Positions 1,616 through 7,357 of a DNA stretch of 15,629 nucleotides are shown in pieces. The notes below the pieces were generated by a model. That model did not search any database. It was not told the origin of the DNA and was given only the letters and a program-made list of their open reading frames with translations. A program made the position numbers and the translations under genes. The DNA is from Promethearchaeota archaeon (GTDB taxonomy: Archaea; Asgardarchaeota; Lokiarchaeia; Sigyniarchaeales; SOKP01): contig JAHLWP010000060.1 of the NCBI GenBank assembly GCA_019057865.1, positions 1 to 15,629 on the forward strand. The letters are read 5' to 3'. Position 1 is the first letter of the stretch; each line of letters opens with the position of its first letter.

Positions 1616-2284
1616 ATGAGCGATTTAAAAAGTAAAAAACGGGAAAAAAGTCCAGAGGATTTATTCAAAAAGGTATTATTAATATGTCCTGAATGTAAAA
1701 CACAAAAAAGTTTACAAGTTCCTTCAAAAATAATAAATCAAAGTCAACACATAACTACGATTACTATTCCTACAGGATTGGTCTGTGAACACCACTTTCA
1801 AGCATTTGTTGATAAAGCTTGTGCTATCAGAGGTTACCAATTAGGGGATTTTGAATTTTCGAAAATCGAATACATTGAAAGCAGAGAGATAGATGGTATT
1901 CAAGAAGAAAATGATGACATTAGTGAATTTACTTCTTTACTATTATTTCAAGATATAATTAACCTTTTAAGAGATAGTGTAGATGATCGAGAAATATTAG
2001 GTTGTGCAATATTTACTACTGACGGAAAAGTTATATATTCCTCAATTCCACATAATACTTTACTTAATACAATCAAAGAATTCGAAGTGAGGAAAGAGAA
2101 AAAACTACATAGTATAATTAAAATGCTTCTTGAATTAAAAAATCATCAAAAAGTATGTTCAGAATATATTGAAATTCATGATAGAGAATTTATATTAGTT
2201 ATATTATTTTCTCACATCGTAAATTTTGCAATAGGAAATATGTTTCTAAGAAATATTGTAAAGAAAATAATCGAGTTAACTTAG
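1616..2284 (+). CDS. Zn-ribbon (CPEC...CEH) plus C-terminal roadblock/LAMTOR-like domain protein
   Basis: 222 aa: N-terminal CxxC...CxH, acidic linker, then helix-ILGCAIFTTDGKVIYSS-helix-strands-FILVILF-terminal helix, the roadblock topology. Stop overlaps the convergent stop at 2281-2284 (TTAG). Confidence 0.65.
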   Translation: MSDLKSKKREKSPEDLFKKVLLICPECKTQKSLQVPSKIINQSQHITTITIPTGLVCEHHFQAFVDKACAIRGYQLGDFEFSKIEYIESREIDGIQEENDDISEFTSLLLFQDIINLLRDSVDDREILGCAIFTTDGKVIYSSIPHNTLLNTIKEFEVRKEKKLHSIIKMLLELKNHQKVCSEYIEIHDREFILVILFSHIVNFAIGNMFLRNIVKKIIELT

Positions 2285-4373: not shown

Positions 4374-7357
4374 TATTTATTTCCTCTTTTTTTTCGTGTA
4401 ATTTTCTTTAAACTTTCATTTCTTTTATTCCTAAATTTATCTATATTATAATATTCTTCTACTCTATCTAATAACAATAGTAAATGAGAAATTTCTTCGC
4501 AATTCTCATAAAATTCAGCTGCTTCTTCAAAAAGATTTTGATCTAGTAAATTATTAGCTTGTTCCTCCATATTATTCCTTTTATGTTCTATATCAGAGAT
4601 CTTGAGTTTTCCGTCTTTTAGTAATTGAATTAGCTCAGATTGATACATTTTTACACTATCAAAATCTTTTAATTTTTTTGAAATTTGAATTAAACCAAAA
4701 TAAATATCATATACTTTTATGAAATTGTTCTTTTCTTTTTCTTTTTCCAAATTTTCTAATTTCTCTTCACGTTCTTCGCTTAACAATTTAATATCAGCAA
4801 TTAATTTCGAATAAAAGATTGCTTCTTTTTTTTTATCTAATTTCAGAAAAAGTTGTTCTGCAATTTCAAATTGTTTTTGAGCCTCTAAATAAGCTCCTTC
4901 ATTAAACAATTCTTCTCCTAATATCTTAATTTCATTTAATCGAGTTTCCAATTCTTTTTCATTGATTGTTTCTTTTTTATATGTTAATTGATCATCTAAT
5001 ATTTCTATGTGTTCTTCCTTTTCAAAAGTGGGTTTTACATTAGAAATTTCATTGATATGTGAAATTATAACCTTAAGTGGTATCTTTTTTCTGGGAGGAT
5101 GAATTTTCTTTTGAATTCTTTTTCTTAACACAATTATTACCGTAATTGAAGCGATTACACTTGCTAGTATATATGGTAATACATCTAGAAATGTGACATT
5201 ATTTCTACTATTAGTAATTGGAATTATGTCAAAAGATCCTGTTGTATAATTACTTTTTAACCCTACTCCATCGATTTGTCGTAAAAAATAATAATAAGTC
5301 CCAGAAGTAAGATTATCAGACAACTCATAATAACTACTAATTGATCCAGTATTCGTAATATTAATATTTACTATAAAACCAGGTGTAGTATATGGATCTG
5401 ATTCGTTATCAATGACTAAATTATAAAAAGCAATTCCAGAAAGATCAAAACCGTCAGCCCAATCAAATATTAAAGTACTATAAGCACCACTGCTTGGGGC
5501 TCTAATCATTATAGGGGGTGTTGGGGGTGTAGTATCAATCACCTTAATTGAATTACTGACAGAGTTCCAAGTATTACAATTATCTTCAAAAAAAATTATA
5601 TATGTATAATTACCTATTTGAGACGGTGTCCATGTGTCATATTGCCAAATATCTCCTCCGATATTTGTCATTGAATGATTAGAACCCTCAAATTCAATTA
5701 AAACTTGCCTAATGCCAGAAATATCAGTAACGTTAATAGTTATAATCTCAGTGTTTCCCAATTCTATTATATTTGAGCTTTCAGTCAAGTTTGAAAAAAC
5801 TGGAGGGTCAGTATTAAATTTTACTTCTTGACTGATATTGTAGAAAGAATTAGGGTCATATTGGTTATAAAATGAAGTGTTGATTGATTCAGGCTGTCTT
5901 AATAAATTAGAGACGCGAAGTTCGTCGATCCAACCATCAAAATAATCTGTTGAAACTCTACCAATCTCCATTTCAGAAACATTAACCCCATTTGTATCAG
6001 TAATAACTACATAATGCCAATTTGTCGTTAAAGAAGAATTAATTATTCCATCTATATAGATAGTTGTTGTACCTGGGAAATTAGTAGTTAATAGATCACC
6101 TCCGACAATATCTATGTGTGCAGGGCTATTTAAATTAATGATTTTCATAGATACATAAGTATAATAAACTTTTATTATAATATAGTCAACACTTAGATTG
6201 GTACCGGGGTTATGTGGGCTTCTCGTTAGTCTTATTCCGAAATTACTATTTGTGAAATCATCTGATGACCATGTTCTTCCCCAAGTATCTCCTGGACCTC
6301 CAAATGTTTTATTTTCCTCAGATATGGACCATGTATTCAATGCTTCACTGGTGTAACTAAAGCCACCGTCCCATGAGAGTGCTGCATCTGCTCCTGAGAT
6401 GGAAGAGGCCGTTGCCTCAACATTTACTTCAATACCATCAATTGTGGCACCGTTTGGCACATTAAAATTAAAATTATACCAATCTTGAATCTCATTTGGT
6501 ACTTCTTCTTCAGCATATAAATCATCACTTGTAAATGTATTAGCAGGGTTGCTCCATTGATTATAACCATCTCCAGTTGCTGTTGGACTTTTCCAGTCGG
6601 TTTCAGTAGGACCACCGCTACCTAAATTACTTGGTTTCATCCAAAATTCAATTGTTTTTATTTCAGAACCTATATTACCAACACTTATGTACTCACCATA
6701 TCCTATAAAAAGATTAGCACCATCAATTCTTCCATCATCAATATGCAACACTCCTCCGAATTCAGTTCCATTATTATTATTGGATGTTGAATCAATAGGA
6801 TTAATTTCTTTCATATGCCAAACACCTTTATAATTACTATCCCAGACTTTAGTTGGATTTTCTTGAGAATTTAGGTATGGATTACCATAATACATAGTGA
6901 TGTTAGTATTTAGAGAAACCGATAAGGATGAAACTCGAACCCATGCTATAAGTTGAGCATGGGTTGCATTGTATTCTTTGTCAAATAGTTCTATTTCATG
7001 ATCTAACCATTCAGTATCGTTGGCAAAGGCAATATCATCCCCATCAGATTGAACATCATCATGTAAGTCTGAATCATAAATTGAGATTAACACAGGAAAA
7101 TTAGAATAATTACTTGTTCCAAAGATTTTTGTATGGTCAATTGTGATTACCTTATAATATTTAAAATTGTATTTATCAACAGGACCATTTGTAGATGCTC
7201 GAATCTCTTGAAGCTCATTAATATCATTTTCAAAATTTGATTCATCCATATGGTTAAATTCCTTAATATCACTTGTATAATCTGAATGAGAAATACTTAG
7301 ACTAAAAAGAATGAGAAAAATTGACAATATAAACAAAAATTTTTTCTTACCTTTCAT
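4373..7357 (-). CDS. Single-pass cell-surface protein: signal peptide, DUF2341, LamG/ConA-like, Ig/FnIII-like, TM helix, cytoplasmic TPR-like helical domain
   Basis: 994 aa. Signal MKGKKKFLFILSIFLILFSL; DUF2341 motifs NFPVLI, DGDDIAF, HEIE, WVRV, MYYGNP; LamG motifs TIEFWMK, WHYVVIT, FDGWIDELRVS; DTTPP Ig junction; TM VLPYILASVIASITVIIVL then RKRIQKK; tail with GEELFNEGAYLEAQKQFEIA and FEEAAEFYENC TPR-like helices. Stop overlaps the GTPase start (TAATG). Confidence 0.85.
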   Translation of the reverse strand: MKGKKKFLFILSIFLILFSLSISHSDYTSDIKEFNHMDESNFENDINELQEIRASTNGPVDKYNFKYYKVITIDHTKIFGTSNYSNFPVLISIYDSDLHDDVQSDGDDIAFANDTEWLDHEIELFDKEYNATHAQLIAWVRVSSLSVSLNTNITMYYGNPYLNSQENPTKVWDSNYKGVWHMKEINPIDSTSNNNNGTEFGGVLHIDDGRIDGANLFIGYGEYISVGNIGSEIKTIEFWMKPSNLGSGGPTETDWKSPTATGDGYNQWSNPANTFTSDDLYAEEEVPNEIQDWYNFNFNVPNGATIDGIEVNVEATASSISGADAALSWDGGFSYTSEALNTWSISEENKTFGGPGDTWGRTWSSDDFTNSNFGIRLTRSPHNPGTNLSVDYIIIKVYYTYVSMKIINLNSPAHIDIVGGDLLTTNFPGTTTIYIDGIINSSLTTNWHYVVITDTNGVNVSEMEIGRVSTDYFDGWIDELRVSNLLRQPESINTSFYNQYDPNSFYNISQEVKFNTDPPVFSNLTESSNIIELGNTEIITINVTDISGIRQVLIEFEGSNHSMTNIGGDIWQYDTWTPSQIGNYTYIIFFEDNCNTWNSVSNSIKVIDTTPPTPPIMIRAPSSGAYSTLIFDWADGFDLSGIAFYNLVIDNESDPYTTPGFIVNINITNTGSISSYYELSDNLTSGTYYYFLRQIDGVGLKSNYTTGSFDIIPITNSRNNVTFLDVLPYILASVIASITVIIVLRKRIQKKIHPPRKKIPLKVIISHINEISNVKPTFEKEEHIEILDDQLTYKKETINEKELETRLNEIKILGEELFNEGAYLEAQKQFEIAEQLFLKLDKKKEAIFYSKLIADIKLLSEEREEKLENLEKEKEKNNFIKVYDIYFGLIQISKKLKDFDSVKMYQSELIQLLKDGKLKISDIEHKRNNMEEQANNLLDQNLFEEAAEFYENCEEISHLLLLLDRVEEYYNIDKFRNKRNESLKKITRKKRGNK

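Follow-up and report, generated by a model that had tools for sequence, protein, structure and literature searches.

Does the Rag-like GTPase gene on a contig of a Lokiarchaeial genome belong to a dedicated signalling unit at the cell surface, and, if so, which of its neighbours controls the GTPase? The question is raised by contig JAHLWP010000060.1 of Promethearchaeota archaeon (assembly GCA_019057865.1), a stretch of 15,629 nucleotides (nt) that was analysed at its full length and is here called the window. It is contig 78 of a 4.26-Mb genome that is 99.7% complete, and it is AT-rich (23-35% G+C). The open reading frame (ORF) list of the window contains three consecutive genes on the minus strand, coding for a receptor-like protein (4373-7357; 994 amino acids, aa), a GTPase (3174-4373; 399 aa), and a longin-domain protein (2281-3177; 298 aa from the GTG at 3177, or 292 aa from a conserved ATG at 3159), and a fourth gene on the plus strand that converges on them and codes for a protein with a roadblock fold and a putative zinc-binding module, hereafter zinc-roadblock protein (1616-2284; 222 aa). 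These are the four genes, at the same positions, in which a sequence-only reading of the window had recognized a receptor-Rag-roadblock signalling locus with its own GTPase-activating protein (GAP). We favour, with somewhat more confidence than doubt, the view that they constitute a conserved, self-contained module of Loki-type Asgard archaea, in which a Rag switch would be tethered to the membrane and the longin protein would be its cognate GAP.

In order to establish if the four genes form a unit, 40 loci that surround longin-gene homologues in other species of the class were collected and their ORFs were searched with the four proteins; 37 of these loci hold an orthologue. The Rag gene lies directly upstream of the longin gene, with a gap of -4 to 22 nt, in 34 of the 36 loci that could be judged, and a gene for a tail-bearing receptor lies upstream of the Rag gene in 30 of 31. 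The zinc-roadblock gene is found downstream of the longin gene in 29 of about 35 judgeable loci, in convergent orientation in 28 of them, and in 27 of these 29 the two genes meet at their 3' ends, overlapping or abutting (-22 to +2 nt). The synteny expected from the sequence-only reading is thus kept in about 30 loci of other genomes, and, because the genes that flank the cluster vary from genome to genome, the cluster can be regarded as a unit. The distribution of its parts agrees with the self-contained character that had been proposed for it. The longin protein occurs in 46 of 161 genomes of the class (about 41 strong orthologue matches), and the N-terminal domain of the GTPase in 38 of 161, all of them within the longin-protein set. 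The receptor tail occurs in 41 of 161, often in several copies, and 36 of the 38 with an expectation value (E) <1e-10 also fall within that set. The module, the domain identities of its products, their catalytic-type motifs and the co-inheritance of its parts are what these loci have in common. An accidental juxtaposition of GTPase, longin and roadblock paralogues, all abundant in Asgard archaea, was considered in view of the 33 Gtr1_RagA-type matches in this genome, the many longin and roadblock genes of Asgard genomes, and the report that, as a rule, the GTPase genes of MK-D1 do not share operons with such genes (Tran et al., PMC10933270). Against it stand four families whose order and spacing are constant in about 30 loci with unrelated flanks, and whose presence and absence are matched over the 161 genomes. 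Synteny and co-occurrence together make chance so improbable that we regard it as excluded.

The junctions between the genes were read directly from the sequence. The TAATG at 4371-4375 has one base common to the TAA stop of the receptor gene and the ATG of the GTPase gene, and the TTAG at the other end of the cluster is formed by the overlapping stops of two convergent genes, the TAA of the longin gene (2281-2283, minus strand) and the TAG of the zinc-roadblock gene (2282-2284); both overlaps had been described correctly. The GTGA at 3174-3177, in which the GTPase TGA stop overlaps a GTG, is also present, but it does not hold as a conserved start. The start conserved in relatives is the ATG at 3157-3159, which encodes Met7 and opens an 'MPxG' motif nearly invariant in 47 sequences. 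Because the relatives start at this ATG, and the family profile match begins there as well, the GTPase and longin genes are more likely separated by a 14-nt spacer containing GAGAGGA than overlapping, an overlap being possible in this copy. The GTGA overlap was rejected as a conserved layout, since orthologues start at the ATG equivalent to Met7, with a gap of 12-22 nt in most loci.

By sequence, the GTPase is a clear member of the Gtr1/RagA family, which bears out the earlier assignment as RagA-like. It matches Pfam Gtr1_RagA (PF04670) over aa 104-307 with an E of 3.3e-42 (144.9 bits against a cut-off of 22), and its best solved relatives are yeast Gtr1 (2.7e-24), with an alignment that runs through aa 372, and human RagA. 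Among the 33 Gtr1_RagA matches in the genome it is the best, and 12 other strong matches lie elsewhere. The G domain (aa 104-307; 3453..4064, minus strand) was delimited by Pfam and by invariant columns in an alignment of 32 orthologues (A3), in which the P-loop GLSNAGKT, Thr137 of switch I, DLGGQ, the Rag-type HKxD motif (HKSD here, in place of NKxD) and TS do not vary; DLGGQ supplies the switch II glutamine, which is retained in this GTPase. The G domain is followed by a C-terminal roadblock domain (aa 283-399; 3177..3527, minus strand), recognized by Robl_LC7 over aa 283-368 (2.1e-8, 34.2 bits against a cut-off of 23). It is preceded by an N-terminal domain (aa 1-100; 4074..4373, minus strand) that is specific to the subfamily, highly conserved in A3, and without a Pfam match or known family. 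When the profile of the GTPase family was compared with those of the longin and zinc-roadblock families, the probability was 0.2%. Four further Gtr1_RagA-type matches were observed on contig C54 of the host genome (G000), near 53, 59, 62 and 141 kb; three of them lie within 10 kb and possibly form a second Rag-like gene cluster.

For the longin protein, no match was obtained in Pfam, NCBIfam or the PDB by sequence or profile, and NPR2 (PF06218) and NPR3 (PF03666) do not match it at E up to 1. Its homologues number more than 200, with identities of 56-91%. An AF2 (AlphaFold2) model built from a 47-sequence alignment reached a predicted local distance difference test score (pLDDT) of 90.5 and a predicted template modelling score (pTM) of 0.88. 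In this model an N-terminal longin domain (aa 4-135; 2773..3168, minus strand), also supported by fold search, is followed by a roadblock-like domain of order β-β-α-β-β-α (aa 138-229; 2491..2766, minus strand) and by a small α/β C-terminal domain. The top Foldseek matches of the whole chain are the NPRL2 and NPRL3 chains of GATOR1 (2.8e-5 to 3e-4), and the nearest eukaryotic shape clusters are DENND11, NPRL2 and NPRL3. With a longin domain at the N-terminus and further domains C-terminal to it, the model is similar in overall shape to NPRL2/NPRL3. The longin and roadblock folds that had been assigned to the products of 2281-3177 and 1616-2284 were thus recovered by models and fold searches.

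Two features of the longin domain suggest a GAP. A Gly21-Pro22 (GP) motif at the start of strand β2 (3112..3117, minus strand; the first two modelled strands are 10-17 and 21-29) does not vary in the alignment (47 of 47 sequences). Arg75 (2953..2955, minus strand), a candidate arginine finger, sits in the β4-β5 loop, which the model places between strands 63-69 and 81-88; it is arginine in 43 of 43 Rag-linked orthologues, being replaced in four distant homologues. A GP motif where the second longin strand begins, beside the arginine finger, has been described in FLCN, NPRL2, SMCR8 and C9orf72 and not in non-GAP longins, GEF-type (guanine nucleotide exchange factor) longins included; the same work found the GP and arginine signature in some Asgard longins and asked if their partner is an ArfR or a Rag GTPase (PMC12290439). 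The conservation of both elements in the present family agrees with this GAP-longin signature. A remote homologue from the representative library (P0182, 428 aa) joins a GP-motif longin, a Rag-like GTPase of the HKxD type (HKID, TSI) and a further C-terminal region in one chain, and this fusion may be taken as support for the pairing of the longin protein with a Rag GTPase. Other remote longin matches are fused to TPR-like, winged helix-turn-helix (wHTH) or TackOD1 output domains, which fits what Liu et al. (bioRxiv 10.1101/2020.10.19.343400) remarked on the attachment of signalling domains to NPRL2-like longins. Longer forms of the longin protein itself, enlarged by fusion, were looked for and not found, which is weak evidence.

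The same structural data allow the roles to be exchanged, so that the longin-roadblock protein would be a GEF, or a pseudo-Rag that dimerizes with the GTPase through roadblock domains, and the zinc-roadblock protein would be a dimeric GAP of the MglB type. The majority of longin and tri-longin complexes (Mon1-Ccz1, DENN, TRAPP) act as GEFs, and such complexes are present among the fold matches; the longin protein has a roadblock-like domain of its own; and the GTPase, having kept its catalytic glutamine, could be served by a GAP without an arginine finger. Nevertheless, the GP motif belongs to GAP longins and not to those of GEF type (PMC12290439), and here it is invariant along with Arg75. 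Moreover, the zinc-roadblock gene is dispensable in six loci, and the longin gene is always kept. We therefore consider an exchange of roles rather unlikely, and the longin protein the better candidate for the GAP.

Relatives of the longin family were found in other gene contexts. Two of the four distant homologues that keep GP and lack Arg75 adjoin Ras/Rab-like GTPases: in L069 (7348-8999) and L070 (5689-7125), both from another family of the same order, longin homologues lie beside Ras/Rab-like GTPases of 176-183 aa (Pfam Ras, 160 bits). A paralogous longin family, with members about 310-320 aa long that match the longin protein at E 1e-20 to 1e-30, is present in 129 of 134 genomes of the family, with a copy in the host genome (G000:C23:131287-132153; L075:5231-6154). 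This paralogue of about 318 aa was rejected as a GTPase-linked candidate, for the host copy and those in L067 and L068 are without a neighbouring GTPase gene; in L067 the paralogue gene adjoins a formyltransferase gene.

The zinc-roadblock protein shows no match to Robl_LC7 (PF03259) at E up to 1 and no other Pfam match, and its profile retrieved from the PDB neither a roadblock chain nor any sequence match. Its roadblock fold was confirmed by model and fold search, in the order α-β-β-α-β-β-β-α, and occupies aa 108-222 (1937..2281, plus strand). Near the N-terminus a CPxC...CxH module (aa 24-59; 1685..1792, plus strand), modelled as β-strands with a pLDDT of 60-83, may bind zinc; C24, P25, C27, C57 and H59 are nearly invariant in the alignment of this family (A2). 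Orthologues measure 220-352 aa, and most relatives carry a coiled-coil extension, which suggests a dimer.

The receptor has a type I plan, with a signal-like N-terminus, an ectodomain of about 700 aa, one transmembrane segment and a tail of 250 aa. A hydropathy scan detected hydrophobic segments at aa 7-25 and 726-744; the latter is the transmembrane helix (5126..5182, minus strand) and is followed by the basic stretch RKRIQKK, from which, by the positive-inside rule, the tail would be cytoplasmic. The ectodomain contains a DUF2341 domain (PF10102; aa 105-172; 6842..7045, minus strand; 3.7e-6, 27.7 bits against a cut-off of 23.4). Its orthologues, of 958-2131 aa, have a like plan and add one to three Laminin_G_3 (ConA-like lectin) domains and Big_7 Ig-like domains; Pfam detected no LamG domain in the window's own copy, and the label 'lectin-like' is a reasonable one for the family on the strength of the orthologues' domains. 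Ectodomain length spreads about 2.5-fold, from about 700 to about 1,880 aa, and the tail measures 231-263 aa in nearly all orthologues, with two outliers. In the window's receptor the tail (aa 745-994; 4376..5125, minus strand) comprises a juxtamembrane PPRKKIP motif, a variable linker and helical repeats with a near-invariant GAYLEA, and 29 aligned tails (A4) have a mean identity of 45%. The single membrane pass and the tail of about 250 aa had thus been recognized correctly; as to the TPR-like nature attributed to this tail, the matches are weak and below threshold. TPR_2 scored 16.3 bits on it against a cut-off of 27, and across the orthologues TPR_2 matched 18 of 29 tails at E up to 1 (best E 1e-4, weak) and MIT matched 6 of 29. 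A feature search of the ESM Atlas with the tail gave scores below 0.9 throughout, and its profile, when compared with the TPR-like regions that remote longin homologues carry as fusions, gave probabilities <6%. Short tail homologues are mostly receptor fragments at contig ends.

Judged by gene context, no two parts of the module are linked more tightly than the tail and the longin protein, since these remain adjacent even where the GTPase gene is missing. In one such locus (G092:C2; L057) the longin gene comes immediately after the receptor gene, and a Rag gene is missing; in the other (G001:C70; L062:557-2359) a soluble tail-only protein of 290 aa, without a transmembrane segment, is encoded 39 nt upstream of the longin orthologue, with no Rag gene nearby. 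A complex prediction of GTPase, longin protein and tail, in which the tail was scored, gave 0.66 in three runs, 0.00 with the tail replaced, and again 0.66 with the GTPase replaced, scores that speak neither in favour of binding nor against it. The one receptorless locus, G093:C128, keeps a decayed remnant of the tail.

Decayed copies of the module were also encountered. At G082:C22:54318-55169 a receptor gene is followed by a longin gene fragment interrupted by a stop; at G098:C52:7158-9274 receptor and Rag genes precede longin fragments with stops; and the tail remnant at G093:C128:10177-10305, with stops, lies upstream of an otherwise intact Rag-longin pair. These copies point to duplication and decay of the module. 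Remains of the longin gene are likewise preserved beside some of the extra receptors in genomes with several tail copies. In the receptorless locus (L003/L004, 8852-16873) the zinc-roadblock gene is followed by a gene for an Arf-like GTPase of 184 aa and by three for large TPR_MalT/TPR_12 proteins.

Variable ectodomains on a constant tail admit another explanation, in which the surface proteins are clients and not sensors. The Rag-longin-roadblock module would recognize the common tail and control how these proteins are inserted, sorted, clustered (for example on protrusions) or turned over, much as small GTPases with longin-containing adaptors, or SRα-SRβ, handle eukaryotic membrane cargo. 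The adhesin-like character of the ectodomains (DUF2341, LamG, Ig-like) agrees with it, and so do the genomes with four to eight tail matches against one to three longin matches, where the extra receptors are encoded elsewhere, without module genes adjacent, and several tail-bearing proteins would use one module. Loki cells also show many complex surface proteins (PMC9834061), and a sorting switch regulated by a GAP is compatible with both the sensor and the client views. By contrast, the invariant GP and arginine and the NPRL2/NPRL3-like match of the whole chain indicate control over nucleotide state in preference to cargo binding alone, and the cluster contains no coat, SNARE or translocon gene. 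We consider the client role possible but unlikely.

Our preferred view, a Rag switch tethered to the membrane with the longin protein as its GAP, can be detailed as follows. A Rag-family switch would be built at the cytoplasmic face of a single-pass surface protein, whose variable ectodomain of lectin/Ig type would face outward and whose constant helical tail, of about 250 aa, would lie inside the cell. The tail may act as a membrane docking platform for the soluble parts, most likely through the longin-roadblock protein, because the tail and longin genes stay adjacent without a GTPase gene; the GTPase would be brought along. NPRL2 is a GAP for RagA and FLCN is a GAP for RagC, and on this model the longin-roadblock protein would act on the Rag-like GTPase through Arg75, next to Gly-Pro. 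The zinc-roadblock protein would dimerize and pair with the roadblock domains of the GTPase, of the longin protein, or of both, as a scaffold of Ragulator or MglB type. Engagement or clustering of the ectodomain would alter access of the GAP and hence the nucleotide state of the GTPase, which would then act on an effector. This effector would be other than TOR, because profiles of the PI3/PI4-kinase, Raptor, IML1 and NPR2 families found no match in the 99.7%-complete genome, in searches that had no eukaryote among their controls; the 'TOR-independent' character proposed earlier is consistent with this result. On this model, binding, activity as a GAP and the signalling direction are inferred steps, and the same applies to those elements of the sequence-only reading by which the ectodomain would sense, the tail would recruit or gate the GTPase, the longin protein would be a GAP and not a GEF or scaffold, and the whole would be a precursor of Rag nutrient signalling.

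Several points weigh against this proposal. Longin proteins are mostly GEFs or scaffolds. Eukaryotic Rags are heterodimers, and the cluster has one Rag gene only and no second. The equivalence of Arg75 to R78 of NPRL2 would follow only from its loop position in the model. At the sequence level no link to NPRL2 emerged, for the longin profile retrieved only 62 clusters from 1.84 billion proteins, none of eukaryotic type. The zinc-roadblock gene is absent from six loci that have the other three genes. Finally, the module is patchy, being found in 24 of 53 species of the genus, and so is not a core housekeeping pathway.

Roadblock-bearing Rag-like GTPases, NPRL2-like longins, roadblock proteins and solved Loki structures are already known in Asgard archaea, and the locus was compared with these and with other characterized systems. 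It resembles the eukaryotic system of Rag/Gtr GTPases, GATOR1 (NPRL2-NPRL3-DEPDC5) or FLCN-FNIP, and Ragulator/EGO in three respects: the Gtr1/RagA G domain is joined to a roadblock domain at the C-terminus, the longin protein has both the GP motif and an arginine in a loop and is nearest to NPRL2/NPRL3 in the shape of its whole chain, and an additional roadblock protein is present. Attachment to the membrane by a separate, largely helical polypeptide would also be common to both, this being LAMTOR1 in eukaryotes and presumably the receptor tail here. It differs in having one Rag gene in place of the RagA/RagC pair; a longin protein of 292 aa that has its own roadblock domain and no Pfam NPR2 match; no DEPDC5, Raptor or TOR-type kinase found in the genome by profile searches; an anchor that is a large-ectodomain surface protein of the plasma membrane and not a lipidated lysosomal adaptor; and an operon-like gene cluster. 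In Ragulator (LAMTOR1-5), the Rag dimer is held by two roadblock heterodimers, around which lipid-anchored LAMTOR1 is wrapped. Nothing resembling LAMTOR1 was identified here, and by analogy the receptor tail might take its part.

Among prokaryotic systems, the MglA-MglB polarity switch of bacteria and archaea likewise places a small GTPase gene beside that of a roadblock-fold regulator, probably dimeric, but the present GTPase is of Rag type, and there are in addition a longin protein with a candidate arginine finger and a linked transmembrane protein. The Asgard 'NPRL2-like longins', or GP longins of FLCN/SMCR8 type (Liu et al., 10.1101/2020.10.19.343400; PMC12290439), share the GP motif with a nearby arginine, the Asgard origin and the fusions to signalling domains and GTPases. 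Those papers treat the proteins singly and leave the partner GTPase open, whereas here a conserved adjacent Rag gene indicates the partner. The only operon described by Liu et al. comprises LAMTOR1-like, Rab-like and DENN genes, and its GTPase is not a Rag. LokiRagO (PDB 8yl2) and a Loki roadblock-longin protein (PDB 8yqg/8yqk) are proteins of the same kinds from the same archaeal group. The former matches the GTPase at 2.6e-11 and is a distant paralogue of 342 aa without the 100-aa N-terminal domain; in 8yqg the domain order is reversed, roadblock then longin. No description of the gene context of 8yl2 or 8yqg was found in the open-access or bioRxiv literature. Nor did open-access papers and bioRxiv yield an earlier account of a receptor-Rag-longin-roadblock cluster, in keeping with the novelty claimed by the sequence-only reading; papers available by subscription may be missed.

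The remainder of the window was inspected as well. Upstream of the cluster, about 150 nt before the receptor start codon, a repeat search and the sequence itself revealed two tandem 27-nt repeats (7501-7554, without strand), each ending in a TTGATC half-palindrome; these ends form TTGATCAA palindromes, and the repeats could be a binding site for a regulator. No tRNA or Rfam match was obtained in the window, and a scan for promoters and terminators of bacterial type, a type of scan inapplicable to archaea, performed no better than on shuffled sequences. Between 8050 and 13988, a region that the sequence-only reading had likened to a defence island, there are nine mostly co-oriented ORFs of 103-389 aa without a Pfam match above cut-off, for which only two matches at E <= 0.01, both far below cut-off, were recorded; these speak neither for nor against that label. 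On the other side of the cluster, positions 206-1267 (plus strand) code for a protein of 353 aa that contains DUF2229 (2.9e-46) together with the end of HGD-D, of the CoA-enzyme-activase/2-hydroxyacyl-CoA dehydratase type; a BcrAD_BadFG/DUF2229 gene also lies a few kb past the cluster in the closest complete relative (L001).

To our knowledge, this would be the first case of a Rag-family switch tied to a transmembrane surface protein. Whether operons can reveal the partners and targets of Loki small GTPases was formulated as an outstanding question (PMC4917890), and GTPase-regulator pairs could not be read from the layout of the MK-D1 genome (Tran et al., PMC10933270). The present cluster goes toward answering on which GTPase the Asgard GP-motif longins act, the question posed in PMC12290439. 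It provides a matched set formed by a Rag-like GTPase, a candidate longin GAP with a named arginine, a roadblock partner and a membrane anchor, four proteins that can be expressed and assayed together, so that the ancestry of Rag, GATOR1 and Ragulator becomes directly testable in vitro. A speculative extension, to which we give only limited credence, is that the Rag-GATOR-Ragulator axis began as a plasma-membrane device, in which a receptor tail, as a LAMTOR1-like tether, docked an NPRL2-like GAP and a Rag, and contact with cells or glycans outside set the Rag state without TOR; the device would later have moved to the lysosome and been coupled to TORC1 in eukaryotes. If the link to the receptor is true, the module would bear on how the archaeal ancestor of eukaryotes sensed partners or nutrients at its surface.

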